A stretch of 64,000 bases of DNA from Alphaproteobacteria bacterium (GTDB taxonomy: Bacteria; Pseudomonadota; Alphaproteobacteria; CAAHEQ01; UBA3637). The notes below the pieces were generated by a model that saw only the letters and a list, made by a program, of their open reading frames with translations, searched no databases and was not told the DNA's origin. The stretch spans positions 139,740 through 203,739 of the forward strand of contig JAZQUH010000039.1 in NCBI GenBank assembly GCA_045631185.1, read 5' to 3'. This document shows positions 16,574 to 63,757 of the stretch, piece after piece (within the stretch, counting starts at the first letter, position 1; each line of letters begins with the position of its first letter). Made by a program: the position numbers and the translations under genes.

Positions 16574-16575
16574 AA

Positions 16576-16695: not shown

Positions 16696-17178
16696 ATGAA
16701 AAACAAACTCTCGACTTTATTGAACCCGATATCTTTGGCAAAATCTTCTGAACATCCTTTAAGAAACTCGAACGCATTGATTATTCTCTGTATATGTTGT
16801 CCTATAGTACATATTTGTCTTTGTATTTTCCTTTATATAAATTATGGACTTATTCCGTTTATTTTGTATGTTTTCATAAGTACTGCTATTTATCTAGTTA
16901 TTGAGCATAAAAACAAGGACCTGAAGGATACTGTAAAAGAAATGATTAAGCAACGAAACAAACGACAAAATCCTGTTTTCTTTATGGATATGGATCAAGG
17001 ATTTTCAGAAAAAACAGTGATTATATATTTATTCTTATTTTTCCTGATGAACTCAGCAATTCTTATCGTTTTAATGAATATAGATGGATTAAATGAAATT
17101 CTATTTATGTTAGCTTTTGCTTTGCCCAATATATTCTTACGTTTATTATTTAATAAATTTAAAAAAAAGAAGAGTTAA
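16696..17178 (+). CDS. hypothetical multi-pass membrane protein
   Basis: Four hydrophobic segments and a K-rich C-terminus. No recognisable family. Confidence 0.5.
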   Translation: MKNKLSTLLNPISLAKSSEHPLRNSNALIILCICCPIVHICLCIFLYINYGLIPFILYVFISTAIYLVIEHKNKDLKDTVKEMIKQRNKRQNPVFFMDMDQGFSEKTVIIYLFLFFLMNSAILIVLMNIDGLNEILFMLAFALPNIFLRLLFNKFKKKKS

Positions 17179-17226
17179 AAAATGAGCAAAATTTAGGATT
17201 TTCCAAAATCATACTTTATGTACATC

Positions 17227-17256
17227 AAAAAAGCCACTGATTAAACGGTGGCTTTT
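17227..17256. terminator. bidirectional terminator (membrane-protein gene / tRNA-Val)
   Basis: aagccac...gtggctt hairpin flanked by an A-run and a T-run. Confidence 0.65.
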
Positions 17257-17260
17257 AAAT

Positions 17261-17337
17261 TGGTGGGCGATTACGGATTCGAACCGCAGACCCTATGCGT
17301 GTAAAGCATATGCTCTAACCAGCTGAGCTAATCGCCC
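17261..17337 (-). tRNA. tRNA-Val (anticodon TAC), CCA encoded
   Basis: Reverse complement is GGGCGATTAGCTCAGCTGGTTAGAGCATATGCTTTACACGCATAGGGTCTGCGGTTCGAATCCGTAATCGCCCACCA. Confidence 0.9.
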
Positions 17338-17384
17338 GAATATCCTTTATCATAACATTGTTTGATTTAAATGTCAACCAAAAA

Positions 17385-30234: not shown

Positions 30235-30286
30235 ATTTTAACAACTGATGGGGAAGAGTTATCTGACCCAAAAGAAAGGATATAAT

Positions 30287-31702: not shown

Positions 31703-31719
31703 AATAAAAAAGGATATTG

Positions 31720-32907: not shown

Positions 32908-33872
32908 CGTTGACAGAAGAAGAAATCGTATCTTTGTTAGTTGATTCAAAAAATCAACATCAATTATTCAAAAAGGCAGATCAAGTCAGACAGGAAAATG
33001 TTGGTAATTCTGTTTTATTAAGAGGATTAATAGAATTTTCAAATAGTTGTAAAAATAACTGTTTGTATTGTGGCTTGAGAAAAGATAATATTCAACTCAA
33101 ACGTTATAACCTTTCACAAGAGGATGTATTATGTTTGGTAAAAAATGCTGTTCAATTAGGCTTAAAAACAATAGTTTTTCAATCCGGGGAAAATTTTGTA
33201 TATTCATGTGATAAATTATGCCGAATAATTGAGCAAACAAAAAAATTTGGTGTTGCGGTTACATTAAGTATTGGCGAAAAAAGTTATCAGGAATATAAAG
33301 CGTTTCGAGATAGTGGTGCAGATCGGTATTTAATGCGTATAGAAACGACAGATCAAAAAGTATATCATGATTTAAACCCGGGTATGAGTTGGCAGCATCG
33401 TTATGAATGTTTACAAATGATTAAAGAACTTGGATATGAGTTGGGTTCAGGAATAATGGTTGGTTTACCCAGGCAAACATTAAAATCAATAGCACGTGAT
33501 TTGTTGTTTTTGAAAAAGTTGAAAATTGATATGGCAGGGATAGGACCATTTATTCCTCATCCTTGTACACCATTAAGTGATTGCAAGGCGGGAACATTGG
33601 ATTTAGCTTTAAGGACGATGGCAATTATGCGCATTTTATTACCACATATCAATATACCTGCAACAACGGCAATGGAAAATATAAATAAAAATGGCCAAAT
33701 AAAAGCATTGCAATCAGGGGCAAATGTTATCATGCTTAATGCAACTGATTCTTTACATCGTTCTTTATATGAAATTTATCCATCTGATAAATCCTACTAT
33801 GATACCTTATCAGATAATTATTTTGATTTAAAATGGAAAATTTATGCTATAGGGCGAAAAATAGATGGTTGA
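32904..33872 (+). CDS. hydE: [FeFe]-hydrogenase maturase HydE (radical SAM)
   Basis: CKNNCLYCGLR Cx3Cx2C near the N-terminus, BioB-like fold length (322 aa). ATGA overlap with hydF. Confidence 0.8.
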   Translation: MTLTEEEIVSLLVDSKNQHQLFKKADQVRQENVGNSVLLRGLIEFSNSCKNNCLYCGLRKDNIQLKRYNLSQEDVLCLVKNAVQLGLKTIVFQSGENFVYSCDKLCRIIEQTKKFGVAVTLSIGEKSYQEYKAFRDSGADRYLMRIETTDQKVYHDLNPGMSWQHRYECLQMIKELGYELGSGIMVGLPRQTLKSIARDLLFLKKLKIDMAGIGPFIPHPCTPLSDCKAGTLDLALRTMAIMRILLPHINIPATTAMENINKNGQIKALQSGANVIMLNATDSLHRSLYEIYPSDKSYYDTLSDNYFDLKWKIYAIGRKIDG

Positions 33873-34652: not shown

Positions 34653-36728
34653 TTATTTCAACAACATTTTGAAGTCCACCACAACGGCACGGTCTTTTGT
34701 GACCAATACAGGGTTGCCGTCAATGGATGTGATTTCGGGAATTTCCAAAACCAACTTTTGAACTTTTGCCAATGTATCGGCCAACGGTCCGACGGCTTTT
34801 GGATCTTCGCCACGCACACCATTCAAGATGGTACCGACTTTTGTTTCCTTAATCATGGCATCAAAGTCATTGGCGGGCAAGATACGCATTGTTGTATCAC
34901 GCATGACTTCGGTATAAATACCGCCTGTACCGAACACCAACACACGGCCGAAGTTCTTATCGGAATTGACGCCGATAATTGTTTCGGTGGCTTTGGTAAT
35001 CATTTCTTGAATCAAGACGCTGGCACCTTTTAATTCAAACTTGGCGATTGTGGCTGTCAAAGCATCAAAGGCTTCGTTGAATTTTTCTTCGGAATCAATG
35101 TTCAAATAGATACCCTTCATTTCTGTTTTATGTAAGGCATCAGGGGCCGACAATTTCAACACGACAGGGAAGATATTTTTGGCAAAGGCCAAAGCTTCGG
35201 CTTTATCGGTAAAGTTACCGCATTTCGGATAATCAATACCATAATGATCCATAATCATGTTCATTGTGGATTGCGGTAAAGAGGCCAAACCTTCGGAAAC
35301 GGCAGAAGCAACAGCGGCTTTAATATCGGCCGGCACTTCGCTTGTTTCAACTTTCACATCGGGCAATCCTTTGAATGCCATTTGGGCTTTCATCAAGCCG
35401 AGCAAACGGATACAGTCTGTCGGATAATCATAGGCCAAAATCTTGGCGTTTTTCAATAATTGAACGGCTTCACGCACACGGGAACCACCTATGAAAGAAC
35501 AATAGATATTGACGTTTTTATATTGTTCGGCCATTTTGATAACAGCTTGGGCTGTTTCAACGGGTTCTGTGGACATTTGCGGTGTCAACAACACGATGAT
35601 GTTTTTGTATTCACCGGATTCACACAACACACGCAAAGCATTTTCATAACGGTCTGCCTTGGCATCACCCACCACGTCAATGGGGTTACCGACGGAAGCT
35701 TCAGCGGTTAAAACGGCACGCAAAGCTTCAATTGTTTTTTCGGACGGTCTGGCCAAATCCAACTTGGCTTCTTCGCACAAATCAGAAGACAACACACCCA
35801 CACCACCGGCGTTTGTTAAAATACCGACAGCACCGCCAAAGTCTGTGTGATTAACGTTTTGCAATAATTCCAAAGCACCAAATAATTCACGGGTTGTATA
35901 AACTTGGATAGCACCACTGCGTTGCAAAGCAATTTCCAACACACGATAGTTGGGGGCCAAAGAACCTGTATGGGACAAGCTGGCTGCTTGGGCTTTGCTG
36001 GATTTACCCGGTTCCATAATTACACACGGTTTTGTTTTGGAAACTTCTTTCAATACACGCAAAAATTCCTGACCTTTTTTCAATCCTTCCAAATAGAACA
36101 CAAAAGCCTTGGTGTTTTCGTCATGTTGAATGAAGTCCAACAAGCTGGCTTCGTTCAAATCTGCTTTGTTACCCACGGAAATAAAGTGAGAAAAGCCAAT
36201 GCCTTTTTCTTCGGCCCAATCCAAAATCGCACTGCAATAAGCACCGGATTGAGAAATAAAGGCCACATTACCCTTTAATGGGAAGCAAGGTGCAAAAGAA
36301 GCATTTAATTTATCAAAAGTGGAAATATGTCCCAAACAGTTCGGACCCAACACATTGATACCGGCATCCAAACATTTTTTGGCAATTGTCAATTCCAATT
36401 CTTTATTACCGACTTCACCAAAACCGGCGGTAATAATGCTGATGTTTTTGGCACCGTTGGCGATGGCATCATCCACGGCCGCTTCACAAAAACGGGCCGG
36501 CACCAACAATACAACCAAATCAACGGCTTCGGGAATATCACGCACGGAGGCAAAGCATTTTTTACCTTTTAATTCCTGACCGGCCAATTTGGGATTCACT
36601 CCGTATAAATTGCCTTCAAAACCGGCATCAATCAAGTTATTAAAAACGACCGCGCCCAATTTGGATTCATCGGCCGAAACACCAACAACCGCCACGGATT
36701 TCGGTGCAAAGAATGTATTTAAAGACAT
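34653..36728 (-). CDS. ADP-forming acetyl-CoA synthetase (acetate--CoA ligase, fused alpha-beta, NDP-forming acyl-CoA synthetase family)
   Basis: N-terminal CoA-binding FFAPKSVAVVGVS...KLG. Succinyl-CoA-synthetase-like ligase domain with the phospho-His region SLSHTGSLA. C-terminal ATP-grasp domain. 691 aa. Confidence 0.8.
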   Translation of the reverse strand: MSLNTFFAPKSVAVVGVSADESKLGAVVFNNLIDAGFEGNLYGVNPKLAGQELKGKKCFASVRDIPEAVDLVVLLVPARFCEAAVDDAIANGAKNISIITAGFGEVGNKELELTIAKKCLDAGINVLGPNCLGHISTFDKLNASFAPCFPLKGNVAFISQSGAYCSAILDWAEEKGIGFSHFISVGNKADLNEASLLDFIQHDENTKAFVFYLEGLKKGQEFLRVLKEVSKTKPCVIMEPGKSSKAQAASLSHTGSLAPNYRVLEIALQRSGAIQVYTTRELFGALELLQNVNHTDFGGAVGILTNAGGVGVLSSDLCEEAKLDLARPSEKTIEALRAVLTAEASVGNPIDVVGDAKADRYENALRVLCESGEYKNIIVLLTPQMSTEPVETAQAVIKMAEQYKNVNIYCSFIGGSRVREAVQLLKNAKILAYDYPTDCIRLLGLMKAQMAFKGLPDVKVETSEVPADIKAAVASAVSEGLASLPQSTMNMIMDHYGIDYPKCGNFTDKAEALAFAKNIFPVVLKLSAPDALHKTEMKGIYLNIDSEEKFNEAFDALTATIAKFELKGASVLIQEMITKATETIIGVNSDKNFGRVLVFGTGGIYTEVMRDTTMRILPANDFDAMIKETKVGTILNGVRGEDPKAVGPLADTLAKVQKLVLEIPEITSIDGNPVLVTKDRAVVVDFKMLLK

Positions 36729-38942: not shown

Positions 38943-39859
38943 TGACCCCTCAAATTGATGCTTTTTTGGAAATGATGCAGGCACAACGGGGAGCTTCCGT
39001 CAATACTTTATCGGCCTATCGGCGTGATATGTATTTGTTGGATGAATATCTGTTGTCGCATCATTCGGGTTTGTTAAAAGCCACCGAAGATGATTTAAAA
39101 TCTTTTTTAAAGTTTTTAATGAATACGGGGGATTCGGTGCGCACTCGTGCCAGACGATTGTCCTGTATTCATGAATTTTATCGTTTTGCCTATTCGGAAG
39201 GGTGGATAAAGGTCAATCCGTCTGATTATTTACAAGGTCCGAAATTGCCCCAAACGTTACCCAAATACCTGACGGAAGATGAAATTTTTTTATTGATTCA
39301 GCAAGCCCGTGAAAACAATAAGCGCCTGTATGTATTGTTGGAGCTTTTATATGCCACCGGCATGCGTGTCAGCGAATTGGTTGGCTTGCCGTTGGGGGCT
39401 TTTGTGCCTGATGAACGGCATTTATTGATTTTGGGTAAAGGCGGGCGAGAACGAATCGTTCCGCTAAATGATTATGCAATTGATGCTTTGATTCAATGGA
39501 AACAAATACGTGAAAATGATTTGCCCTATAACCGCAAAAGCAAATGGTTGTTTCCTTCCAAAAGTTGCTTGGGGCATTTAACACGGGATACGTTTTTTAA
39601 AGAATTAAAAAAATTGGCTTTGCTTGTCGGATTGAATCCGGATAAGGTTTCGCCACATGTCTTTCGCCATTCTTTTGCCTCACATTTGGTGGCCCATGAT
39701 GCGGATTTGCGTTCCGTTCAACAAATGTTGGGCCACTCGGATATATCCACAACACAAATTTATACGCACATTTTACCCGACAGATTAAAAAAGATTGTTG
39801 AAAAATCTCATCCTTTGTCGTATAATGGAGCGAGGAAAAAAAATGAAGATAGCGGATAA
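38942..39859 (+). CDS. xerD: site-specific tyrosine recombinase XerD
   Basis: LSAYRRD, GPKLPQTLPKYL, ATGMRVSELVGL, HVFRHSFASHL, LGHSDISTTQIYTH. Confidence 0.9.
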   Translation: MTPQIDAFLEMMQAQRGASVNTLSAYRRDMYLLDEYLLSHHSGLLKATEDDLKSFLKFLMNTGDSVRTRARRLSCIHEFYRFAYSEGWIKVNPSDYLQGPKLPQTLPKYLTEDEIFLLIQQARENNKRLYVLLELLYATGMRVSELVGLPLGAFVPDERHLLILGKGGRERIVPLNDYAIDALIQWKQIRENDLPYNRKSKWLFPSKSCLGHLTRDTFFKELKKLALLVGLNPDKVSPHVFRHSFASHLVAHDADLRSVQQMLGHSDISTTQIYTHILPDRLKKIVEKSHPLSYNGARKKNEDSG

Positions 39860-42800
39860 ATACATTTTACGGCAACTGATTGTCGGCTTTTTATTGGTTT
39901 TAACCTGTATGACCATGCTGGTTTGGTTGACTCAATCGTTGCGTATGATTGATATGATTGTCACCAATGGCGTTTCTGTGGGTGTGTTTTTAAAAATGAG
40001 CCTTTTGGTTTTACCGCACTTTATGCAAATTTTAATGCCGTTAGCCTTGTTTGCGGTTGTTTTGTTTGTTTTTATTCGTATGCAATCGGACAAAGAATTG
40101 ATGGTTTTAAAGGCGGTCGGGATGGGCCCTTATCAGTTGATGAGCCCTGTTTTGAAGATGGCCGGCGTATTGGTGATAATCGGTTATTTCCTTTCATTGT
40201 TCTTGGTGCCGTATTCCGAAAATCAGGTGCGTGAAATGAAATGGAAAGTGCGCAATAATTTATCGCATGTGATGTTACAGGAAGGCCAATTTAATACCTT
40301 TAAAAAAGGAATGATGATTTATATCCGTGAACGTATGCCCAATGGTGCGATTAAGGGGATTTTGGCCTATGAAATGAAAGACGGTAAAAAATCCACTTTG
40401 ATTGCCGATGAAGGGACATTGTATCAATCCCCCGATGGGATAGAGGTTGTCTTTGGTCAAGGTGCCCGTCAAGAGTATAATCCCGAAACAAAACAATATT
40501 CTGTTTTAAAATTTGATAAATATACCGTTGCTTTGAATGATAAAAATCAATCGTCCGGTACACGCACACAAAAGGTCAAAGAATTGCCCTTTACACAATT
40601 ATTGACAATGAAGCGGGATGAAGCGCCCAATGAATCCACATGGCGTAAATATAAGGTGGAAGCGTTCAAACGTTTAACCCAACCGCTTTACAGCATTATT
40701 TTTGCTTTGTTGGCGTTGGTGGGGGTTATAACGGGCTATTATAACCGTCGCGGACAACCCATTCGTGTGAATGCGGTTGTGGGTTCGGCTTTATTGATTC
40801 AAACATTGGCTTTGGCCTTTGAAAATATTGCGGGTAAAAATTTATGGGGTTTGCTGTTGATGACTTTGAATATCGTGCTTCCATTGTGGATAATGGTGGG
40901 TATCTTTAAAAAAGAAAGTGGTCCCAAAGTGCCCAAAAAATATAAATATATGCTTCGTTTTGTGTTTTTGTTCGGGCTTTTATTTTCCGTTCAATCTTAT
41001 GCTTTTTCGGATATAGATACATCGGCCTTTAATAAAGATCAGCCCGTTGATTTTGAAGCCGATCATGTTTCCTATGATCAAAAGCAACAAACAATGACGG
41101 CTTCGGGCAATGTTGTATTGAAACAAAACGGTATTGTTTTTAATACGGATAAAATTTTGTATAATCAAAAATCCGATATGATTCATATCCCCGGTGAAGC
41201 CACAATGGTTTTGCCTGACGGTAATTCTTCGCTGGTGCGTGATATTCAAATTAAAGCCCATGGTGATGAAGTAAAAACAGGTAAAGGCAAGATGGATATG
41301 GCTGATGGAACGCACTTGTGGGCCAATCAAATTGTGCGTCAGGACGGTAAAGAAAATATCTTAAAGGATGCTTTTTATACACCATGTGAAATGTGTGAAA
41401 ATTCTTCACCTTTGTGGCAAATTCATGCCAGCTCGATTGAACAGGATGAAGAATCCCATATGATGCGTTTTTGGAATACCCGTGTTGAATTGAAAAATGT
41501 ACCGGTTTTATATTTTCCGTATTTTCAAATTCCCGATTATACAGTTAAGCGTCAAACAGGTTTTTTAACACCGACTTTTGGCAGTGATTCCGAATTAAAG
41601 GCTTATGTGAAAGCGCCGATTTTTGTGGATTTAGCCGAAAATCAAAATTTAACCATTACGCCGGTTGTGTCGTTTTCCCGCAATCCTTTGGGTATTTTGG
41701 ATTATCAGGGGCTGTTTTCAAAAGGTAAAGTTGAATTACAAACCAGTTATACCAAAGATGATGATGACAGAAAACAGGGACATATCCAATCCAGCTTTGA
41801 ATATGATATCAATGATTCTTGGCGTTTAACGGGGGGCTATAATCGTACTATTACGGATACTTATTTCCGTCGTTATAATGTGTTGGATGTGGATACCAGC
41901 CAATCTTTTTTAACCTCCCATTTAACGGGTGAATACTATGGTAATCGATTGTACGGTAACGCCACACTTTACAATTTCCAAAGTTTACAAGAAGGCGTCC
42001 GTTCTGAATCAATACCTGTAATTTTACCCGTCTTTAACATGCGTTATACGACAAAGCCCTTTACACAACAGGGCGGTATTATGTATTCGGATATCAATGG
42101 CGCCTTTATTAATGATCGCAATCATTTTAAATCCAACCGTTTGTCATTGACTCAGGGGATTTCGTTGCCGTATAAAACAAGTTTTGGTTTGATGACACAA
42201 CTTTCCGGATCCGTGCGTATGGATGGATACAGTGTGGATACAGGATTGACCGATATGGGCCCCCGTGCTCAGGATTCTTATTTTACGGGTCGTGTTTTTC
42301 CCCAGGCTGTGTTAAAGATAAGCTATCCGTTGATAAAAAAGAATGCTGAATATGCTCAGGTTTTGGAACCGATTGTCATGATAGTCGCATCTCCTAACGG
42401 CTCTAATCCCGATAAGATTCCCAATGTGGATAGTTCCGTTTTCGACTTTGATGATGTGAATTTGTTTTCACCCAACCGTTATATGGGATATGATAAAGTG
42501 GAATCCGGTTCGCGCATAAACTATGGTGTGCAATGGACTTTATACCAAACGGACAAAAAACGTTCCATTCAGGCTTTGTTGGGGCAAAGTATTCGTTTGC
42601 GTGAAAAAGACGAATTGGATGATGCCATGGGCTATGATGGCCATTTTTCCAGCTATGTCGGTCGTTTACAGTTAAATTATGATTATTTGACATTGGCCTA
42701 TCGTTTCCGTATGGCACAGGAAAGTTTTGAAGCACAAAAAAATGATATATCTGTTGAAGCGGGTTCATCTCCGCTCAGAATCGGATTGAATTACCTGTTC

Positions 42801-43091
42801 CAGGATTCTTTCCGTTTTGGGGATGTTTATTCAACTGCCAAAAAAGAAGTGTCGGTATATGCACGTTCTCGTTTGACCAAAAATTGGTCATTGGAAGGGC
42901 GTTATCGTTATAATTTATTAAAATCCGACAGGGGACCACTGGAAACATACGGTATTTTGCGCTATGATAATGAATGTGCCGCTGTTGAATTTGAGGCCAG
43001 TAAATCCTATACGCATGATCGCAACTATAAAGGCGATACCTCAATTACAATGCGCTTTTACTTAAAAACTTTGGGAGGATTCGGACAATGA
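39843..43091 (+). CDS. lptD: in-frame fusion of an LptF/LptG-family LPS export permease (residues ~1-369) with LPS-assembly protein LptD (from internal Met at 40950)
   Basis: YjgP/YjgQ-type six-TM N-terminal part (MKIADKYILRQL...). Then KKYKY-MLRFVFLFGLLFSVQSYA|FS, a signal-peptide-like segment. Then the OstA N-domain (VDFEADHVSYD...) and a long beta-barrel region. No stop codon between the parts. Confidence 0.75.
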   Translation: MKIADKYILRQLIVGFLLVLTCMTMLVWLTQSLRMIDMIVTNGVSVGVFLKMSLLVLPHFMQILMPLALFAVVLFVFIRMQSDKELMVLKAVGMGPYQLMSPVLKMAGVLVIIGYFLSLFLVPYSENQVREMKWKVRNNLSHVMLQEGQFNTFKKGMMIYIRERMPNGAIKGILAYEMKDGKKSTLIADEGTLYQSPDGIEVVFGQGARQEYNPETKQYSVLKFDKYTVALNDKNQSSGTRTQKVKELPFTQLLTMKRDEAPNESTWRKYKVEAFKRLTQPLYSIIFALLALVGVITGYYNRRGQPIRVNAVVGSALLIQTLALAFENIAGKNLWGLLLMTLNIVLPLWIMVGIFKKESGPKVPKKYKYMLRFVFLFGLLFSVQSYAFSDIDTSAFNKDQPVDFEADHVSYDQKQQTMTASGNVVLKQNGIVFNTDKILYNQKSDMIHIPGEATMVLPDGNSSLVRDIQIKAHGDEVKTGKGKMDMADGTHLWANQIVRQDGKENILKDAFYTPCEMCENSSPLWQIHASSIEQDEESHMMRFWNTRVELKNVPVLYFPYFQIPDYTVKRQTGFLTPTFGSDSELKAYVKAPIFVDLAENQNLTITPVVSFSRNPLGILDYQGLFSKGKVELQTSYTKDDDDRKQGHIQSSFEYDINDSWRLTGGYNRTITDTYFRRYNVLDVDTSQSFLTSHLTGEYYGNRLYGNATLYNFQSLQEGVRSESIPVILPVFNMRYTTKPFTQQGGIMYSDINGAFINDRNHFKSNRLSLTQGISLPYKTSFGLMTQLSGSVRMDGYSVDTGLTDMGPRAQDSYFTGRVFPQAVLKISYPLIKKNAEYAQVLEPIVMIVASPNGSNPDKIPNVDSSVFDFDDVNLFSPNRYMGYDKVESGSRINYGVQWTLYQTDKKRSIQALLGQSIRLREKDELDDAMGYDGHFSSYVGRLQLNYDYLTLAYRFRMAQESFEAQKNDISVEAGSSPLRIGLNYLFQDSFRFGDVYSTAKKEVSVYARSRLTKNWSLEGRYRYNLLKSDRGPLETYGILRYDNECAAVEFEASKSYTHDRNYKGDTSITMRFYLKTLGGFGQ

Positions 43092-45148: not shown

Positions 45149-46447
45149 TTAAGAATTTTCTTTTTTCTTTTTTCTTAAATCGTTCCAATAATCAATACGT
45201 TTTTGAATTTCACGCTCAAAGCCCCGTTGGGCAGGGTGATAAAAGGTTCTGTGTCCGATTTCATCGGGAAAGTATTCTTGGCCCGAAAAGCCGTCTTTGG
45301 TATCGGGATCGTATTGATAGCCTTTTCCATAGCCCACATCTGACATCAATTTTGTCGGTGCATTCAGGATATGTTTGGGTGGCATTAAAGAATCGGTTTG
45401 CTGGGCCACATTGACGGCTTGCTTCCATGCCTTATAAACGCCCACTGATTTGGGTGCAGTTGCTAAATAAACAACCAAACCGGCCACGGCCAAATCGCCC
45501 TCGGGTGAACCCAGCCGTTCATAGCTGTTCCATGCATTGATGGCCTGAACCAAAGCCTGCGGATCGGCCAATCCCACATCTTCGGATGCAAAACGGGTTA
45601 AACGGCGCAAGATATACTTCATGTCTTCACCGGCTGTCACCATCCGTGCCAACCAATATAAACCGGCATCCGGATCGGACCCCCGCAAAGATTTATGCAA
45701 TGCTGAAATTAAATTGTAATGCCCTTCACGATCTTTATCATAGTTGGGCAACCTTTTTTGCAACAATTTTTCCAATTCATCTTTATCCAAGATTTCATTG
45801 GGTCTGGCGTATTGCCAAACAGCCTCTAACAAATTGATAAAGTACCGTCCGTCCCCATCGGCCAAAGAACGCAGATATTCTTTTCCCACTTCATCCAAGG
45901 GCAGGGGCTTTTGCATAATTTTTTCGGCCCGCTGGGTTAAATCGGCCAAAGCCGTATCATTCAAACGATTTAATACAAACACTTTGCATCGGGATAGCAA
46001 AGCGCTGTTTAATTCAAAGCTGGGGTTTTCGGTGGTGGCCCCTACCAATATAACGGTGCCGTCTTCCACAAAGGGCAAAAAGCCATCCTGTTGAGCCCGA
46101 TTAAAGCGGTGAATTTCATCCACGAATAACAAAGTCCCTTTGCCGGCCATTTGGCGTTTTTTGGCTTCATCAAACACTTTTCTTAAATCGGCCACACCCG
46201 AAAAGACGGCGGACAATTGCACAAATGTTAAATTTGTTTTATCGGCCAAAATACGTGCGATGGTTGTTTTGCCACACCCTGGGGGACCCCATAAAATAAA
46301 GGACGAAAGATTTTGATTTTGAATCATCCGCCCCAAAGGGCCTTTTTCACCCAACAAATGATTTTGCCCGACCACTTCATCTAAATTTTCGGGGCGCATT
46401 TGATCGGCCAAAGGCTTATGATTCAAAGTTTCAAATAAACTGCTCAT
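45149..46447 (-). CDS. rarA: replication-associated recombination protein A (AAA+)
   Basis: LWGPPGCGKTT, LFVDEIHRFN, and the C-terminal MgsA domain. ATG at 46447 (MSSLFETL) is preferred. An upstream TTG at 46483 would overlap the stop of the preceding gene. Confidence 0.9.
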   Translation of the reverse strand: MSSLFETLNHKPLADQMRPENLDEVVGQNHLLGEKGPLGRMIQNQNLSSFILWGPPGCGKTTIARILADKTNLTFVQLSAVFSGVADLRKVFDEAKKRQMAGKGTLLFVDEIHRFNRAQQDGFLPFVEDGTVILVGATTENPSFELNSALLSRCKVFVLNRLNDTALADLTQRAEKIMQKPLPLDEVGKEYLRSLADGDGRYFINLLEAVWQYARPNEILDKDELEKLLQKRLPNYDKDREGHYNLISALHKSLRGSDPDAGLYWLARMVTAGEDMKYILRRLTRFASEDVGLADPQALVQAINAWNSYERLGSPEGDLAVAGLVVYLATAPKSVGVYKAWKQAVNVAQQTDSLMPPKHILNAPTKLMSDVGYGKGYQYDPDTKDGFSGQEYFPDEIGHRTFYHPAQRGFEREIQKRIDYWNDLRKKKKENS

Positions 46448-46479
46448 AAGCCTTATTTTAACCGATTTTTCCAAAAAAA

Positions 46480-49173
46480 TCAAGTTTGAGGTTGTGATTT
46501 TGATGGATTTGGTTCAGGTGCACAAAGTAGTTCAGCTAAGCGATTTGCAATTGATTCTTTAGGAATCTGAACCGTAAAGTGATATTGCTGATCTGAATGT
46601 ACCTTTGATAAATCAAGGCCTGAATTTTGGTCCGCCCAAACAAAACAGTTTTTATCTGATGCCTTTTTACAGCATCCGGTATTACTTACTGTATTTGCCG
46701 GAACAACGCCATCAGAGAGGAAGAATAGAATAGAATTTTTTTGTCCGCACATAGTCTTGATTTCATTTTGAGCTTTTGAAAAACAAGTTTGCCCGTTACG
46801 TCCTCCCACTGTGCAATTATAAGCACAAAGACTTTGATCTAGGTTATAACCTTTTTGGCTAAAAGGATTAATGGTCGTATTATATTTGTTTCCCATACAT
46901 TTTTGTCCTGAGATCTCATTTTCTTCTGAGCCTTTATTATCCTCACGGAATATACCAATTTGAATGTCTTCGTTCACTTCTTCAATTGTTTGTATAATTT
47001 TATTTGTCAGGGTATTTCTATATCCATCAAAGCCATTAAAATAGGTTGAATAAGAATAATCAAGTAATAATGCAACGGAAATAGATTCGTTCGCTTCACA
47101 AATTCGTATACATTTATATTCTCCATTAACCAATTTGGCGGTTTGACCTCTTGGACAACAAATATACACTTGGTTATTGTCAGTGTCATTTGTTACGCGT
47201 GTCCAAAAATCTTCAGCAGTACTACATACACACATTAATAACTCATCGCTCCATTGTAAACCATCATCACATTGACAAGTTCCATTAACACATTTTGTTT
47301 GTCCGGTTCTTAAATGTTCTTCGTTTAGACAGTGCGAATCTGATTGACAACCGCACAAATGCGTTTCTAAGCATTTTGTTCCATCAATATTTCCTTCACA
47401 ATCAACGTCAGTTTCGCATCCGCAAAGTCCATTTTCCATGCATAAAATTCCCGGAGGACAATCTTCATTGACCTCGCAAGGACCGCATGTTCCTTTCGTT
47501 GCTTCACTTGTACGACATACCAAGCTACGATATTGTATACCTAGATTTTGGCATTCTTGCGTTGTTTCACATGGTTGGCATGTATCGTGTTCTTCTGGAT
47601 GTTCAGCATCTGTAGGAACACAAATAGGTGTTCTAATTGTTTCAAGGGCTGTCGGAGAGATGCCCGGAGTGAAACAATCTAAATGCTTTTCTTCATAGCA
47701 ATGCCTATTGAAGCGATCCATTTTATCTTCACCACATGATTTTCTTAAATCATGAAGACAAGGTCTGCAAATTCCAGCATCGCAATAATAATTTTCAGGG
47801 CAATCTTCATCTACTGAACAACCACCACAGGTGGAAACCCCATTGACTTCAACGCATTCTGAAGCGCAACATTGTCCATTGCAACAAAAAGTTTTATCAG
47901 AAGGACAACATTTTTGATTGCAACAATTATCTGATTCACAATCGCTGTTTTGGCTACAATTTTTGCATATTCCGTCTTCACAAATCTGACCGCTTGGACA
48001 ACAAACGCCTTGGCAGCAAACACTTGTATCAGAACAATCTTCATCTGTAGTACAGCCATTTCTTTCTGAACAACGTTTTACGCCATCAACGTTTTTGCAA
48101 TATGCTGTTATTCCCAAATGACTGCAATTACAGTTTGCGCTGCACGTTTCTCCCATACTTCTTGGTTGGCATTCGCATAATCCATTTACGATTTTGAAAA
48201 ATCCATTTGTTTCATCACAAGGAACACATTCATGATTTTCGTTGCAAAATGTACCTAAACCAACACCTGTTGAATTTGTACACTGTTCTCCAATATTTCT
48301 ACATTCAACACATTTTTCATTAACACATTCTGGTTTGGCAGGATCTGTACATTGCGTGTTGTTAATACACTCTACACAACGATTATCATCTTTACAATAT
48401 CGTCCGTTTTGACATCCACCACACAAACCACAATTTATGTCAGTACTATCACAACATTGTCCAATTCTGTCTTCTGTTTTGTTTTCAGGGCAATTATGAC
48501 ATTTTCCTCCATAAAAATATGCACAATCTTCACTTACTTTTCCAGCTCCATAAACAAATAATTGATTTCCTGTATCACATAATTTTTTTATTGCACTCGG
48601 ATTCTTTTTTAAATAATCAGGTGTGAAAGCATAAACATTTTCATCTAAATCTGTAATTAATTTAACATCATTTCCATCCATAGGATTTATGTTTTCAGGC
48701 GTAACAGTATTGGGAAAATTTAATACGGTATTGTCATTTTCTAATTGTTTTGCAGGAATTGCTAATGAAAAACCCCCAGCGTATGCCACTTCCTGACAAG
48801 AAATAGGATTTATATTAGAAGATAGAACAATAAAACTTGTTGAATCAGCATATTTATATAACTTGACCTGACCTCCATCTGCTGTTTGGGCGCAAGTTGA
48901 ATCGACTGCACATTTTTTTGCTTCTGGATAAACTTCTGTTATTTTGATCCGTCCAGCCTGTCCTGAATCTTTAACTTGTAAGCGGGAGCTTTTGTAACGT
49001 ACTCCTATTGTTGTTATTTGCTTTGCTGTTTCTTTGTATTTTAGGTAATCGAATAGCAACTTAAGACCTACAAGGGCGGAAATCAACAAAATCCCAACAA
49101 TTGCCAATACTGCAATCACTTCAATTAAACTTCTGCCTTTTTCGTTTGTTTTTTTTAACTTTGAATAAAACAT
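46480..49173 (-). CDS. prepilin-like N-terminus + cysteine-rich stalk + C-terminal vWA/MIDAS-like module (897 aa)
   Basis: MFYSKLKKTNEKG|RSLIEVIAVLAIVGILLIS. Hundreds of residues of Cys-rich repeats. C-terminal LLLDYSYS ... IQIGIF ... GGRNGQT ... ILFFLSDG. SD aaggagg. Confidence 0.7.
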   Translation of the reverse strand: MFYSKLKKTNEKGRSLIEVIAVLAIVGILLISALVGLKLLFDYLKYKETAKQITTIGVRYKSSRLQVKDSGQAGRIKITEVYPEAKKCAVDSTCAQTADGGQVKLYKYADSTSFIVLSSNINPISCQEVAYAGGFSLAIPAKQLENDNTVLNFPNTVTPENINPMDGNDVKLITDLDENVYAFTPDYLKKNPSAIKKLCDTGNQLFVYGAGKVSEDCAYFYGGKCHNCPENKTEDRIGQCCDSTDINCGLCGGCQNGRYCKDDNRCVECINNTQCTDPAKPECVNEKCVECRNIGEQCTNSTGVGLGTFCNENHECVPCDETNGFFKIVNGLCECQPRSMGETCSANCNCSHLGITAYCKNVDGVKRCSERNGCTTDEDCSDTSVCCQGVCCPSGQICEDGICKNCSQNSDCESDNCCNQKCCPSDKTFCCNGQCCASECVEVNGVSTCGGCSVDEDCPENYYCDAGICRPCLHDLRKSCGEDKMDRFNRHCYEEKHLDCFTPGISPTALETIRTPICVPTDAEHPEEHDTCQPCETTQECQNLGIQYRSLVCRTSEATKGTCGPCEVNEDCPPGILCMENGLCGCETDVDCEGNIDGTKCLETHLCGCQSDSHCLNEEHLRTGQTKCVNGTCQCDDGLQWSDELLMCVCSTAEDFWTRVTNDTDNNQVYICCPRGQTAKLVNGEYKCIRICEANESISVALLLDYSYSTYFNGFDGYRNTLTNKIIQTIEEVNEDIQIGIFREDNKGSEENEISGQKCMGNKYNTTINPFSQKGYNLDQSLCAYNCTVGGRNGQTCFSKAQNEIKTMCGQKNSILFFLSDGVVPANTVSNTGCCKKASDKNCFVWADQNSGLDLSKVHSDQQYHFTVQIPKESIANRLAELLCAPEPNPSKSQPQT

Positions 49174-49186
49174 TTATCCTCCTTCT

Positions 49187-51973
49187 TTATGAGCTTGTTT
49201 TACAGGAAGCTTGAATACTACATGCAGCACATTTATTAGTAAAGTCAAGACTTATATGGTAAGTGTGTCCCTTTTCTAGGGTGAGTGTTTTACTGATATT
49301 TGTTCCAACATCTCCATTTCTTAAATCTAAAAGGTAAGTATGGCTGTCTTTGTCATAAACAGAAAAATGTACAAACGAAGTAATTGATATTACATTGATT
49401 GATAATTCCATATCTGTATCGGAATCCACAAAGAAATCGGAATTGTCATACCATTCCCAACGATCAGAGTATTCTCTTTTATTTCCAAATGATTGACCAA
49501 TGCAACATGCCGTTCCGTCAGAATTACAGGAGCTGTTACAACATTTTGTTCCACAGCATTTTTTCATATTTGCCGAACAACATTTTTCATCACATACTAA
49601 TTTTCTACTCGGATTTAACCAACGACATTCAGCTTTGGTTTCATCCCATGTTTGACAGGCGTTACAAGAATCACATTGGTTGGTTGGTTTTTCACCATCT
49701 GTTAATGGACAATAATCTTCTGTGACTGTTTGACATTCTCCTTCAACAACTTTTGTATATGTAACAGTTGTTTTATGGCTTAAAGGGGCTTTTTTACCAC
49801 AAATGTCTTCATCACCATCTAAGGCGCAACATTCTATTCCTTCACAACTTTGAGTTGGGCAGGGTTTACATGTTTTTGTGGTTATATCACAATAGGTATC
49901 ACCTTCGCAGTCTGTATCTTCATTACAGCCTACACAAGTTGTTCCGTTTGTATCACAAACTTTTAAACTGGAATTACTTGCAGGCGGACAAGAGAATGCT
50001 TCTGTTTTCAGACATCCTTTATAAAGGGGAGCATTATTAGGATAATATTCATCTTCTTTTATGTTACAACTGCGATTAAAATTGGGACATTCCCGACATG
50101 TTGCATCATCACACCATGCATTTTCTTCACAGGTAATTGCTTTTGTTTTTAAACAACCTGCATAAAGTTGAATGTCAGAAAAATACTCATCTTCAGAAAT
50201 ATCGCAGCTTTCGTTTGGGACTGGACAATTTGAACAAGTGCCATCATCTGTACAATATTGATTTTCAGCACATGTTACAGCAGTTTTTATCAAACAACCT
50301 TGGGCATCATAAATATCTCCTTGACAGGAAGTTCCAGATGGTTCTGGGCAGCATTTGTTTCCATTTTCACCGGTTGGACGACATTGTGTTCCGTTTTTAC
50401 ATTGATTAGGACAAACGTCTTCGCCTGCGCAAGATTCACCATGGTTTAAACTATTTTGGGGCAAACATAAGCATTTATTTTGCTCACATTTAAGACCTTC
50501 CGAACAACCACATTCAGATATACAAGTTTCATCTTTTTTCGGTGATACATCACTACATTGGCATACACCTTCATCTTGTCCGTTTGACGAACAGCTTAAT
50601 CCGAAGCCACAACCACATTCTCCCCAACAAGGATCATTTCTTTTTACTGGTAAGGCGCCGCAACGGCAAAAACCGCTTTGACATGTTAAGGCATTAGTTA
50701 AGCAAGGACAACCTAAATTACATTTATCTCCCAAATATCTTGTTTCTGTGAAACCATTTTCTGTACAATTTGCTTCTTCACAAATCCCATTATTGCAATA
50801 TAACCCTTCTTCACAACTATCACACGCTAAGTTGCATTCTTCTCCGACTTTCGCTTTTGGTCCATTTGGGCATTGACATTGGTTGTCTATACAATCATAA
50901 CCAGTGGCACATTTATCAGGACATAACGGATATGTTGTAACATCACAAGCTTCTCCTCTTGCAATGGGTAATTGATCGCTGTTGCGGCAAATGCATTCTT
51001 GTAAAGAGGTATCCCAATATTTCCCATCACTTTCTTTACAATCATGGGATTCACATTCCAAATCATTATTACACCATTCACCTAAAATAACACCGCCGGA
51101 AGAATCTCGGCAAGGATCACCAACATGTTTGCAGGGTTTACATGTACCATCAGGACTACAATAAGGTCTATCCGGATTTTGACAATCGCTATCTTCTAAA
51201 CATTCTACACAACTGTCATACTTTGTTGAACAAAGTTTTCCTGTGGGACATCCGCCACACAAAGAACATGAAAGATTGGTTTCAATACAACAGTTTCCGT
51301 TTTTATCTTCAATTTCGCCTTGTGGGCAGTTGTGGCATTTTCCATCATAAAAATAACAATCATCTGTTTGTAAATCTTTCCCTGAATCATTTCCACCATA
51401 AATAAACAGGTGAATATTATATGAACAAAAATCCTTTAATTTTTCAGGGTTGGTACGCAATTCATCTGCCGTAAAATATTTTTGTGTTTGGTCCTCTTCT
51501 TTTGTAAAAACTCGACCTTCTCCTAAAAAATCATAAAAATTTTGGTCAGCTGTTGTTACTTGTGCGAAAGCCCCCTGTAAGATTGCTTCTTCACATGTCG
51601 TTGGTTTAATATTTTTGGTGACAACAACAAAAGAATTTGTATCCTGATATGAATAAAGTCTTAATTCGCCCCCATCAGGCAGTTGTGAACAGGTATTATC
51701 GTTGGGAGAATTAGCACATTTATTTCCTTCTGGGAAAACACGTTTCAGACTAACCATTCCGCTATCTTTTGTTGTGCCTCCCAATCGTTCTGATTTATAA
51801 CGAAGTCCAATGGTTGATATTTGTTTTGCGGATTCCTTTGTTTTTAAATAATCCAATAAAAATCTGAAACCGATTAATGCCCCGATCAATAATACCCCCA
51901 TAATTGCCATAACAGCAATTATTTCCATCATACTTCGGCCTGCTTCATAATAACGATTCTGTGTTTTACGCAT
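49187..51973 (-). CDS. prepilin-like N-terminus + cysteine-rich stalk protein (928 aa), paralogue of the downstream gene
   Basis: MRKTQNRYYEAG|RSMMEIIAVMAIMGVLLIG. The first ~200 aa are paralogous to the 897-aa protein. SD gaggggg. Confidence 0.7.
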   Translation of the reverse strand: MRKTQNRYYEAGRSMMEIIAVMAIMGVLLIGALIGFRFLLDYLKTKESAKQISTIGLRYKSERLGGTTKDSGMVSLKRVFPEGNKCANSPNDNTCSQLPDGGELRLYSYQDTNSFVVVTKNIKPTTCEEAILQGAFAQVTTADQNFYDFLGEGRVFTKEEDQTQKYFTADELRTNPEKLKDFCSYNIHLFIYGGNDSGKDLQTDDCYFYDGKCHNCPQGEIEDKNGNCCIETNLSCSLCGGCPTGKLCSTKYDSCVECLEDSDCQNPDRPYCSPDGTCKPCKHVGDPCRDSSGGVILGEWCNNDLECESHDCKESDGKYWDTSLQECICRNSDQLPIARGEACDVTTYPLCPDKCATGYDCIDNQCQCPNGPKAKVGEECNLACDSCEEGLYCNNGICEEANCTENGFTETRYLGDKCNLGCPCLTNALTCQSGFCRCGALPVKRNDPCWGECGCGFGLSCSSNGQDEGVCQCSDVSPKKDETCISECGCSEGLKCEQNKCLCLPQNSLNHGESCAGEDVCPNQCKNGTQCRPTGENGNKCCPEPSGTSCQGDIYDAQGCLIKTAVTCAENQYCTDDGTCSNCPVPNESCDISEDEYFSDIQLYAGCLKTKAITCEENAWCDDATCRECPNFNRSCNIKEDEYYPNNAPLYKGCLKTEAFSCPPASNSSLKVCDTNGTTCVGCNEDTDCEGDTYCDITTKTCKPCPTQSCEGIECCALDGDEDICGKKAPLSHKTTVTYTKVVEGECQTVTEDYCPLTDGEKPTNQCDSCNACQTWDETKAECRWLNPSRKLVCDEKCCSANMKKCCGTKCCNSSCNSDGTACCIGQSFGNKREYSDRWEWYDNSDFFVDSDTDMELSINVISITSFVHFSVYDKDSHTYLLDLRNGDVGTNISKTLTLEKGHTYHISLDFTNKCAACSIQASCKTSS

Positions 51974-51999
51974 AATTCCCCCTCAAGTAATATACTTCT

Positions 52000-52027
52000 A
52001 TTGTAATAAAAATTTTTTTTTATGCAA
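52000..52027 (-). promoter_or_regulatory. putative promoter of the pilin-like operon, with an A9/T5 homopolymer spacer
   Basis: Minus strand TTGCAT-16 nt (aaaaaaaaatttttat)-TACAAT. Confidence 0.45.
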
Positions 52028-52106
52028 GATAAAAAATATTTTTACTTGTTTTTTTTAAAAAAATTTTTTAAACTAAAAACAAATACATTATTTTGAGAGG
52101 AGGAAT

Positions 52107-61699: not shown

Positions 61700-61776
61700 C
61701 GGAGTGTAGCGCAGCCTGGTAGCGCACTTGTCTGGGGGGCAAGGTGTCGTGGGTTCAAATCCCGCCACTCCGACCA
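61700..61776 (+). tRNA. tRNA-Pro (anticodon GGG), CCA encoded
   Basis: CGGAGTGTAGCGCAGCCTGGTAGCGCACTTGTCTGGGGGGCAAGGTGTCGTGGGTTCAAATCCCGCCACTCCGACCA. C1-G72 pair. Confidence 0.88.
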
Positions 61777-61861
61777 TTAAAAAATGATAACCCATTGTAA
61801 TATATGGGTTATTTTTTTGCCTTTTTCCAGGTAAAAATGAAAAAAGAGGCAAAAATTCATA

Positions 61862-63757
61862 ATGGTGAGACGAAATACCCCCAAACAATATCAAACAAGA
61901 TTACACCTTAGAGACCACACATACTACATAAGAGTTGCAGTCCCCAAAGCATTAAAAACACTTGAAAAAAGGAATGAAATCAGGTATAGTCTAGGAACCA
62001 AAGATTACTTTACAGCAATTGAAAGGTTAAGAAGAGAAAACTATAAGATTAATCTCTATTTTGAGTGGTTAAAAGGATTTCTAATGGAATTAAAGGATAA
62101 AAAAATCATTTTCACTGATATAGAATTACAGCAATTACTCACATATAAGATGAGAATGATAGATGATACTTGTGATAACCACTACTACCAAATTAAGAAT
62201 GGAACCTACCCTGCTGATAACATCAAAACATTTGGAAATAAACAGTTAGCAGATTATAACAAAGAAACCTTTGATGAAAATGCTCCTGATGAACAAGCAG
62301 ATAGTCCTAATGACATTCAGTTTATCAAGCATCAATTCAATAAACTTGTCTATGACTATATGGAATGGTTGAACAAAAGACCTGAAACAAAAGTATCTAC
62401 CAAAGAATTGATAACAAAAATTAAAGAAGGTGGATACCAGCTGTTTCAATTAAAAGAACAGGATAAAGATTCTGAACTCCCCAATCAGATGCTAAGCATT
62501 TTTAGACATTTGCTTGACATAGACCAATACACAGAAGAAAAGTTTGCTAAATTGCAAGGTAAGACAACTAGTATTCCTAAATCATCCATGATTAGAACAC
62601 TGGAAAGTGCTGTTGAATATCAAAAATCACAAGAACTCAGTGGAGTCTTTAAAACAAGAACAACTTGGTTGGATGCTTTTGCTGATATGATAAGACCTGC
62701 CAAAAATGCTGGGAATGTTAGCACAACCACCTTAAATGAAAAGAAACAATGCCTTTCATTCATTATGGAATTGTTGGATAAAGAATATGTTGAAGACATT
62801 AATTATGATGATTGCAAGAAATTAAATAGATTGATTTATAGAGTGCCTAAAAATGCCAGCAAGAAATATCCAGATAAGAAACTGATTGAAGTATTGTTGG
62901 AAGATGAAGATGACAGAGAAGAAGGTTTGTCTATGACAAGCATTTACAAGTATCTTGCCATTTTCAAAGAGTTTTTAAAATATTGCAGAAAGCAAAGATT
63001 ATTAAGTGAGGACCTTGCAGATTTAATTGATTCACCTAAAAGGATTAAAGGAAAGAATCCATACTCACCTTTCACAGATGAAGAACTTTGCAAGATATTT
63101 GACCCTGTTAATTATTGTAAATACACCAAGGATGGACAAGAAGCACCAAAGTTCTTTGTGCCACTCATTAGTTTGTTTAGTGGAGCAAGATTAAATGAAA
63201 TCTGCCAAATTAGAATGGAAGATATCATTGAAGATGATGATATTGTTTATTTCCATACCAGTGATAAGCATCCACTGCAATCTTTAAAGAATGACCAATC
63301 AAAAAGAAGAATCCCCTTTCATCCTGTTTTAAAGAAAATGGGATTGTTCAAATACATTCATCAACAAAAAAGAAATAATGAAGAATGGTTATTTCCTACA
63401 CTTCTTAAACAATATGATCCAAAAAAACATAAGTTTGGTAAAAATGTAGGCAGGTCTTTTGGTAGATACTTAGAACAACTGGGCATTACAGAAAAATCAA
63501 AAGTATTCCATTCATTCAGGCATACAGTTAGACCAAAACTAAGGGATGAATGTCGTTTATCCCAAGAATATATTGATGCTTTGTGTGGATGGGAAGGCAC
63601 TGGGGGCAATGCTGGAACAAAGAACTATTCCCATAAAGAACAAATCCCAATCAGAATGCTTAATTCTTTTATTTCTAAAATCAAATATCCAAAACTGAAT
63701 CCTTTATTCACCCAAATCAATGAGAGAATTAAATTAAGAAAAAAATATTATCAATAA
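61862..63757 (+). CDS. int: tyrosine-type site-specific integrase (long N-terminal arm-type domain)
   Basis: Catalytic residues: GARLNEICQIR (Arg), HSFRHTV (His-x-x-Arg), GTKNYSH (Tyr). The N-terminus has HTYYIRVAVPKAL...EIRYSLGTKDY, typical of island integrases. Confidence 0.85.
   Translation: MVRRNTPKQYQTRLHLRDHTYYIRVAVPKALKTLEKRNEIRYSLGTKDYFTAIERLRRENYKINLYFEWLKGFLMELKDKKIIFTDIELQQLLTYKMRMIDDTCDNHYYQIKNGTYPADNIKTFGNKQLADYNKETFDENAPDEQADSPNDIQFIKHQFNKLVYDYMEWLNKRPETKVSTKELITKIKEGGYQLFQLKEQDKDSELPNQMLSIFRHLLDIDQYTEEKFAKLQGKTTSIPKSSMIRTLESAVEYQKSQELSGVFKTRTTWLDAFADMIRPAKNAGNVSTTTLNEKKQCLSFIMELLDKEYVEDINYDDCKKLNRLIYRVPKNASKKYPDKKLIEVLLEDEDDREEGLSMTSIYKYLAIFKEFLKYCRKQRLLSEDLADLIDSPKRIKGKNPYSPFTDEELCKIFDPVNYCKYTKDGQEAPKFFVPLISLFSGARLNEICQIRMEDIIEDDDIVYFHTSDKHPLQSLKNDQSKRRIPFHPVLKKMGLFKYIHQQKRNNEEWLFPTLLKQYDPKKHKFGKNVGRSFGRYLEQLGITEKSKVFHSFRHTVRPKLRDECRLSQEYIDALCGWEGTGGNAGTKNYSHKEQIPIRMLNSFISKIKYPKLNPLFTQINERIKLRKKYYQ

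Follow-up and report, generated by a model that had tools for sequence, protein, structure and literature searches.

Two adjacent genes on the reverse strand of a 64-kb stretch of DNA from a gut alphaproteobacterium (hereafter the window: positions 139,740 to 203,739 of contig JAZQUH010000039.1, GenBank assembly GCA_045631185.1) probably encode giant modular type IVb pilins which, judging from sequence comparison and structure prediction, would act as adhesins at the tip of a pilus. Each of the two predicted proteins, of 928 (gene A) and 897 (gene B) amino acids (aa), combines an N-terminal pilin head with a long cysteine-rich stalk and a C-terminal tip domain, which in gene B resembles a von Willebrand factor A (vWA) domain and in gene A is of another kind. 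A modular pilin has been defined as an N-terminal pilin module joined to one or more modules that are not specific to pilus biology (Raynaud et al. 2021, PMC8179133), and since large extra modules follow both heads, the two proteins fall within this definition. The features of the locus, in window coordinates, are as follows.

49187..51973, (-) strand: gene A, open reading frame (ORF) of 928 aa with 106 Cys; probable giant modular type IVb pilin with an "A-type" tip, paralogue of gene B
51938..51973, (-) strand: gene A leader, aa 1-12 (MRKTQNRYYEAG), with Gly(-1) at its end; read directly from the sequence
51359..51937, (-) strand: gene A predicted pilin module, aa 13 to ~205 (approximate boundary); aligns with the gene B module and is a member of profile A4
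49499..51358, (-) strand: gene A Cys-rich stalk, aa ~206-825, 99 Cys; from the Cys map, with several kinds of short diverged CxxC-type repeats
49190..49498, (-) strand: gene A C-terminal "A-type" tip, aa 826-928, Cys-poor; phmmer matches to P0009, P0006 and P0004 (E 2e-24 to 3e-13)
49174..49186, (-) strand: 13-nucleotide (nt) spacer between genes A and B; holds the gene B Shine-Dalgarno sequence
46480..49173, (-) strand: gene B, ORF of 897 aa with 92 Cys; probable giant modular type IVb pilin with a vWA-like tip
49135..49173, (-) strand: gene B leader, aa 1-13 (MFYSKLKKTNEKG); read directly from the sequence; PF07963 match over aa 10-34 at 17.9 bits, below cutoff
48529..49134, (-) strand: gene B predicted type IVb pilin module, aa 14 to ~215; from AlphaFold and Foldseek (3fhu_A, PilS)
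47104..48528, (-) strand: gene B Cys-rich stalk, aa ~216-690, 78 Cys; from the Cys map
46483..47103, (-) strand: gene B C-terminal vWA-like domain, aa ~691-897, with residues D705, S707, S709, T796 and D821 of metal ion-dependent adhesion site (MIDAS) type
51974..52106, no strand assigned: AT-rich divergent intergenic region of 133 nt, 5' of gene A, containing the Shine-Dalgarno sequence GAGGGGG; presumed promoter region

Both 2.7-kb ORFs are intact and uninterrupted, the product of gene A being identical to database protein P0002 and that of gene B differing from P0001 at 5 residues. An earlier reading made from the letters of the window alone (the sequence-only reading) had described tandem genes 13 nt apart, each with a strong Shine-Dalgarno sequence, that run into rarA, and this description is accurate: the gap is 13 nt, the ribosome-binding sequences are GAGGGGG (51978-51984) for gene A and GAAGGAGGA (49177-49185) for gene B, and gene B shares its last 4 nt with the rarA ORF (45149..46483). 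Neither ATG has an in-frame alternative start upstream of it, and no consensus promoter passed in a scan of 51974..52106.

A prepilin-type signal with arginine at +1

With the predicted cleavage site marked by an arrow, the N-termini read MRKTQNRYYEAG↓RSMMEIIAVMAIMGVLLIG in gene A and MFYSKLKKTNEKG↓RSLIEVIAVLAIVGILLIS in gene B. In both, a basic leader of 12-13 aa ends in Gly(-1) and is followed by Arg(+1), Glu(+5) and about 20 hydrophobic residues, so that each protein, by its sequence, bears a class-III-type signal, much as had been proposed (a basic leader up to a Gly, then xS(L/M)(I/M)E and some 20 hydrophobic residues). The accompanying claim that the signal fits a PROSITE-type prepilin pattern except at +1 holds for gene B, whereas gene A departs from the pattern also at +3 and +4 (M, M). 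The residue that usually occupies position +1, a hydrophobic or aromatic one (F/M/L/V/W) that is frequently N-methylated, is replaced by Arg in both genes. The pilins of the bundle-forming pilus (BFP) of enteropathogenic Escherichia coli (EPEC), which read (K/S)G↓LSLIE, have the same signal except for this position, which is Leu in BFP.

The Arg is not peculiar to these two genes. In an alignment of 34 family members, all have Gly(-1) and Glu(+5) (E18 of gene B) and at least 90% have Arg(+1), with His(+1) in P0006, while in an alignment of 23 sequences all three residues are invariant. Arg(+1) is also found in 130 of 134 proteins recovered by HMMER with the two N-termini, and in every one of the 61 pilin-like ORFs (none with any other residue) of 81 loci that were gathered through the pilus ATPase alone; this last result means that Arg(+1) is not a bias of the query, and the sequences as a whole present it as a system-wide feature. 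A variant of the signal occurs in the close relative L002, where a 423-aa ORF (4801..6072) starting with ...ESGRTILKVIAF has a G↓RT pilin-like N-terminus with Lys in place of the otherwise invariant Glu(+5).

The heads resemble type IVb pilins

The sequence-only reading had held that the region behind the signal, some 180 aa, is paralogous between the two proteins and would fit a pilin head. The paralogy is real and its extent had been underestimated, for BLASTP aligns aa 11-344 of gene B with 10-343 of gene A (about 340 residues) at 40% identity (E 5e-72). As to the fold, an AlphaFold2 model of residues 1-229 of gene B, computed from an alignment of 34 homologues, was confident (predicted local distance difference test, pLDDT, 84.5; predicted template-modelling score, pTM, 0.80) and had the classic pilin shape, with a 47-residue alpha1 helix (residues 16-62, pLDDT 96-98) followed by a beta-sheet. 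A Foldseek search of this model against 350,542 Protein Data Bank (PDB) chains gave as its best match the type IVb pilin PilS of Salmonella typhi (3fhu_A; probability 0.93, TM 0.55, E 0.043) and as its second Clostridium difficile PilA1 (E 0.17), matches below these being noise. Both of the best structural matches are therefore type IV pilins, in keeping with the proposed head. In the module of gene B Cys126 and Cys199 are invariant across the 34 sequences, and may form a disulfide.

The assignment to a class of pilin comes from shorter relatives. A profile of the giant N-termini (A4) was aligned by hhalign with one of 19 short relatives of 140-230 aa that share the G↓RS signal (A6), and matched it with 99.45% probability (E 4.9e-22) over 124 columns, which extends well into the globular domain. 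The short relatives in turn exceed the Pfam cutoffs for PilS_N (PF08805) and Bundlin (PF05307), and match PDB sequences of BfpA (7.7e-17), TcpA (5.8e-7), CofA (1e-5) and PilS (8e-4). The giants themselves have no direct Pfam match to PF08805 or PF05307, so that their link to type IVb is transitive via these relatives; their own profile matches only type IV pilins in the PDB, and weakly so (E 0.05-5). Taken together, these comparisons support homology of the initial ~210 aa with type IVb pilins as well as a predicted pilin fold, and by sequence the heads would belong specifically to the type IVb (BFP/PilS-like) class, which the sequence-only reading had left open.

Stalks and tips

Behind the heads follow stalks of 475-620 aa with 78-99 Cys, which contain nearly all of the 106 and 92 Cys of the two proteins, so that the hundreds of residues of Cys-rich repeats reported earlier are indeed present, at aa ~206-825 in gene A and ~216-690 in gene B. 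Neither stalk has a Pfam (E<=1), NCBIfam or PDB sequence match, nine other giants had no match in Pfam, PDB sequence searches with the full-length proteins gave none, and no tandem repeats were detected in the stalks at the DNA level.

The last ~210 aa of gene B are common to four relatives, and in 5 homologues the residues D705-x-S707-x-S709, T796 and D821 are invariant. In the AlphaFold model of this region (pLDDT 73.3) the MIDAS-type residues follow beta1, precede a helix and follow beta4, respectively, in agreement with vWA domains, where the DxSxS ... T ... D motif lies in the beta1-alpha1 loop, in the alpha3-alpha4 loop and at the end of beta4. Of the 50 best Foldseek matches, nearly all were vWA domains (best 8ft6, probability 0.99, E 1.6e-3), including those of CMG2, TRAP, collagen VI, integrin I-domains and the SpaC pilus adhesin. 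No Pfam VWA match was obtained for the tip, nor did its profile match any PDB sequence; sequence and model together make the vWA/MIDAS assignment likely. The tip of gene A (~100 aa) is unrelated to that of gene B.

The window holds a third Cys-rich protein, encoded at 5177..6985 on the (+) strand (602 aa, 66 Cys) and devoid of a prepilin N-terminus, whose repeat modules recur in stalks elsewhere in the giant family (phmmer E 1.9e-33 to P0020). It lies behind virB3-like (2400..2693) and virB4-like (2624..5143) type IV secretion genes on the same strand and is bracketed by a 128-nt direct repeat (5014..5141 and 7005..7132, 86% identical) that copies the 3' end of the virB4-like gene, which makes it look like a cassette inserted just after virB4.

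Family and evolution of the locus

A word-indexed homology search with the N-terminal 254 aa gave no match, and an exhaustive HMMER search was needed; with both N-termini it returned the 134 proteins mentioned above, 50 of them at E<1e-10. Among these relatives ~40 giant proteins with 9-12% Cys were found, the family ranging from 850 to 1,270 aa (largest 1,268 aa) with ~10% Cys, and none of the members checked has a database name or domain. When 185,579 species genomes were scanned with an N-terminal motif derived from a 6-sequence alignment, 57 loci were obtained, all of them in gut or rumen metagenome-assembled genomes (MAGs) labelled Alphaproteobacteria, Candidatus Enterousia or Rickettsiales. 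In Ca. Enterousia (order Rs-D84), genomes are smaller than 1 Mb, respiration and flagella are absent, and dependence on a partner has been suggested (PMC12306168).

The tandem layout is kept in other organisms. In a more distant relative (L146-L148) an A-type gene (1,020 aa) is followed after a 12-nt gap by a B-type gene (893 aa) and then by rarA-folD-surA-lptD-xerC, and L001 also has a tandem giant pair, although its contig stops within the second gene, so that the flanks are out of view. In the very close relative L002 a single giant gene stands at the same position. Comparison of the window with L002 is informative with regard to rates of change: the flanking proteins are 87-99% identical (Der 98.9%, RarA 98.9%, XerC 96.7%), whereas the giants share only 31-35% identity. 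By this comparison the locus is hypervariable, which is what one would expect if it encoded an adhesin exposed at the surface and subject to diversifying selection or to replacement of alleles.

Pilus machinery in related genomes

Machinery of the kind that such pilins would need is encoded in relatives. Motif screens proved over-strict here (the Enterousia ATPases have GPTSSGKS, and the BfpP peptidase reads GGDIA, not GxGDxK), and were replaced by tblastn and phmmer searches with the Bfp proteins of EPEC. Searches with the bfp operon recovered BfpA, G, B, C, D, E and F homologues in 23-84 loci, a BfpD-type ATPase being present in 84 (L063-L143). The relatives' clusters are 27% (BfpA), 30% (BfpB), 24% (BfpC), 37% (BfpD), 33% (BfpE) and 33% (BfpF) identical to their EPEC counterparts and include a BfpG homologue. 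Two of these loci, L063 and L128, carry TcpQ, secretin, PilO, T2SSE, T2SSF, G↓RS pilins and a BfpF-like ATPase. On the low-GC contig of L063 the secretin is a fragment, and a 453-aa protein, a weakly PilS-like 176-aa protein and two G↓RS pilins accompany the set, while the fully annotated L128 encodes TcpQ-like, secretin, PilO-like, 532-aa, T2SSE, T2SSF and Bundlin-type proteins, three G↓RS pilins and a small BfpF-like ATPase. ATPases 64-82% identical to that of L063 are present on 80 human-gut or rumen contigs.

In ~48 species of the Enterousia type (L007-L058) the gene order dnaX-pilin-OmpA-like(-Skp) is kept, the pilin being a G↓RS protein of 152 aa. In three of them (L009, L029 and L044) the series continues from dnaX, the pilin, OmpA-like and Skp to a PilO-like protein, a 233-aa protein, T2SSE and T2SSF. 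Over the first 12 residues after the predicted cleavage site, gene B (RSLIEVIAVLAI) matches this short Enterousia pilin (RSLIEVIGVLAI) at all but one position, a near-identity that is consistent with co-assembly of the two types of protein.

Several further arrangements were seen among the relatives. In L055 a VirD4-like coupling-protein gene takes the place of the PilO, ATPase and platform genes of L009, L029 and L044. Tandem arrays of 3-7 short (145-175 aa) G↓RS pilin paralogues are found in other alphaproteobacterial MAGs (L020 7992..12213, L025 9998..12595 and L046 9986..11576), where they sit between uvrC and an rluC-like gene with machinery absent nearby. In L101, homologues of virB3/virB4 that are 58-67% identical to those of the window (13723..18180), preceded by two VirB2-like genes, lie ~4 kb downstream of a BFP-like type IVb cluster, and such homologues also occur at the edges of L065, L098 and L135; type IVb pilus and type IV secretion genes are thus neighbours in some relatives, in a manner reminiscent of IncI plasmids.

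Proposed role and alternative explanations

If both proteins are modular type IVb pilins, a prepilin peptidase would remove the leader between Gly and Arg, and the alpha1 helix would allow the protein to be extracted from the inner membrane and docked into a type IVb pilus, whose assembly would fall to a BFP-like machine with a secretin, TcpQ/BfpG-like and PilO/BfpC-like proteins, extension and retraction ATPases and a platform protein. Because of their bulk the giants would be expected at the pilus tip, by analogy with the large minor pilins TcpB and CofB. There the stalk, presumably stiffened by disulfides, may serve as a spacer that holds an adhesive domain far from the cell, adhesion being mediated by the vWA tip in gene B or the other tip in gene A, and the two paralogues could provide two binding specificities. 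Some 50 disulfides in each protein would call for a periplasmic disulfide-forming system (Dsb). Contact with the surfaces of a host or partner could then account for the fast evolution of the locus.

Several observations weigh against this reading. The curated prepilin models, to which the sequence-only reading had looked for confirmation, did not supply it: gene B scored below threshold with both PF07963 (17.9 bits, cutoff 21.2) and TIGR02532 (14.7, cutoff 16.3), and gene A matched neither. To our knowledge, Arg at +1 is without precedent. The Foldseek E-values of the head (0.043) and the vWA domain (1.6e-3) are modest, and the vWA model reaches a pLDDT of only 73. As had been noted before, no type IV pilus or type II secretion system (T2SS) gene is present among window ORFs of at least 150 aa, nor was a prepilin peptidase found in the 64 kb. 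A BfpP/A24-type peptidase was likewise not detected by tblastn and unfiltered phmmer in ~2.3 Mb of related loci, including the 84 with a BfpD-type ATPase. Machinery follows the conserved pilin in only three of the ~48 Enterousia-type loci, and giant genes were never seen inside a pilus cluster, their neighbours being housekeeping genes. Finally, a stalk of ~650 aa together with a vWA domain would have to pass the secretin, which it may be unable to do.

Most of these points would also be accommodated if the heads were pilin-derived but served as uncleaved signal-anchors, the proteins being tethered to the inner membrane or freed by some other protease and never entering a pilus, a situation that could arise if the lineage had lost its type IVb machine. 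The absence of machinery and peptidase from the window, of a peptidase near the 84 clusters and of giants from pilus clusters, the scarcity of machinery behind the Enterousia pilin and the sub-threshold scores with curated models all agree with it. We nevertheless regard it as unlikely. For a mere anchor there would be no need to conserve Gly(-1), Arg(+1) and Glu(+5) as strongly as is observed, or to keep a globular pilin domain of ~200 aa whose Cys pair is invariant in 34 diverged sequences, and the mature start that gene B shares, but for one of 12 residues, with the Enterousia pilin suggests co-assembly. Moreover, in a diderm a tether in the inner membrane would trap an adhesin-like vWA domain in the periplasm.

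One may also consider that the giants are minor pilins for the priming of assembly or the docking of effectors, in the style of TcpB-TcpF and CofB-CofJ; their stalks and tips would then bind partner proteins of the bacterium itself, not host ligands. The BFP-like clusters of the relatives come without minor pilins of the BfpI/J/K type, and elsewhere among type IVb systems a single large minor pilin both starts assembly and binds a secreted protein. Yet vWA/MIDAS tips and the turnover in sequence seen against conserved flanks (31-35% versus 87-99%) are more typical of surface-exposed adhesins, and we find this explanation quite improbable, although a role in priming or docking and one in adhesion are mutually compatible and the present findings fit either. 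As to spurious or decaying ORFs, i.e. a low-complexity Cys-rich frame with a chance hydrophobic start, which the ~75% of each protein without Pfam or PDB sequence match might bring to mind, such a reading is in effect ruled out by conservation (50 homologues at E<1e-10 and a tandem layout kept in other organisms), along with the uninterrupted frames, the strong Shine-Dalgarno sequences and the confident structure predictions of head and tip. Two other classes of pilin were considered and rejected: Flp/Tad pilins, for which motif and length do not fit and Tad genes are lacking, and VirB2-type pilins of type IV secretion systems, the virB3/virB4 genes of the window being unrelated to the G↓RS signal.

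Comparison with known systems

Our preferred explanation, that the two genes encode modular type IVb pilins, does not require a new kind of protein, since modular pilins are established and widespread; the novelty lies in the combination of features. The sequence-only reading had considered pilins with large grafted modules to be rare, a view that the survey of modular pilins contradicts, with >1,200 proteins in 264 architectures, pilin-vWA among them, the largest having 860 aa (PMC8179133). The closest architectural parallel is PilB of Streptococcus sanguinis, which like gene B has an N-terminal pilin module and a C-terminal vWA domain with a MIDAS, and for which a tip location and an adhesin role have been proposed (PMC8179133). 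PilB differs in being a type IVa pilin of a monoderm, of ~460 aa and with a short loop where gene B has a ~475-aa stalk with 78 Cys; in addition, its signal is canonical (IPR012902) and its vWA domain detectable from sequence, whereas both escape curated models in gene B.

Type IVb systems typically have one large minor pilin located at the tip (PMC5207764, PMC6048534, PMC10191384). TcpB of Vibrio cholerae and CofB and LngB of enterotoxigenic E. coli are, like the giants, large modular minor pilins of type IVb, and are tip-located and start assembly (PMC5207764, PMC6048534). They contain beta-repeat and beta-sandwich modules with few Cys and are encoded inside the pilus operon, whereas the giants (897-928 aa here, up to 1,268 aa in the family) have ~10% Cys, and their genes stand next to rarA, apart from any machinery. 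With ~420-520 aa, TcpB, CofB and LngB are about half the size of the giants.

The BFP operon differs from the alphaproteobacterial clusters in encoding the BfpP peptidase and the BfpI/J/K minor pilins, none of which was found in the latter; in the 84 loci with a BfpD-type ATPase no homologue of BfpP/A24, BfpH or BfpI/J/K was detected within 10 kb. The R64/S. typhi thin pilus is related in that its PilS is the best fold match of the gene B head and that the relatives' clusters hold Pfam PAP_PilO. In that system the minor pilin PilV, of ~430-470 aa, has a variable C-terminus that sets binding specificity and is varied by a shufflon, whereas variation of the giants is by divergent alleles and paralogues with large Cys-rich stalks. 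PilY1/PilC of type IVa pili are functional analogues, large tip-associated adhesins that sometimes have a vWA domain, but PilY1 is no pilin and docks by a beta-propeller onto the minor-pilin complex.

Other features of the window

Besides the genes already described, the window encodes a CcrM-type methylase, a DUF2659 protein, HydE/HydF/HydG-like [FeFe]-hydrogenase maturases and an ADP-forming acetyl-CoA synthetase (the last two at 30248..33872 and 34653..36728). Together with virB3/virB4, this gene set fits an anaerobic alphaproteobacterium, the maturases and the synthetase indicating a fermentative, anaerobic lifestyle. At 39795..43091 on the (+) strand, one ORF of ~1,080-1,100 aa combines an LptF/LptG permease domain (aa 22-361) with an LptD domain (aa 662-1031), apparently a fusion of inner-membrane and outer-membrane components of lipopolysaccharide transport; it is conserved in three related genomes (the window, L002 16147..19446 and L146 19128..22361). 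At 61700..63757 a tRNA-Pro(GGG) is followed by a DUF6538-plus-integrase gene and the GC content falls to 0.31, which is probably the edge of an integrated element.

Implications

What appears to be new is a type IVb head with near-invariant Arg(+1), a Cys content of ~10% in proteins of 850-1,270 aa, genes that stand apart from pilus clusters, an N-terminal motif restricted, in the genome collection scanned, to Alphaproteobacteria MAGs from the gut, and pilus clusters in relatives beside which no peptidase gene was found. Modular pilins account for the acquisition of further functions by simple filaments, and this family, at 897-1,268 aa, would extend the concept to the upper end of the reported size range (the survey maximum being 860 aa) and add to it a stalk of ~100 Cys and the type IVb systems of small-genome, uncultured gut Alphaproteobacteria. 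Its near-invariant Arg(+1) makes it invisible to the InterPro-based survey by which modular pilins were defined. That no peptidase gene was found beside 84 related clusters raises a testable question about the processing of these pilins. In a gut lineage that is poorly understood, the two genes are candidates for determining attachment to a host or partner, and their place in a hypervariable locus would make them useful markers of strain-level adaptation.

A bolder possibility, which we put forward tentatively and consider doubtful as a whole, is that the G↓R(S/T)xxE pilins form a distinct gut-alphaproteobacterial branch of type IVb, with Arg(+1) throughout, clusters without an A24 peptidase and giants that act as rapidly diversifying, long-reach grappling adhesins. 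If so, one would expect either a different processing enzyme or a filament core with a different chemistry, in which, for instance, Arg(+1) would pair with Glu(+5) in place of the salt bridge made by the N-terminal amine. The giants would then be the means by which reduced-genome, possibly partner-dependent bacteria resembling Rs-D84 attach to the cells of a host or partner.

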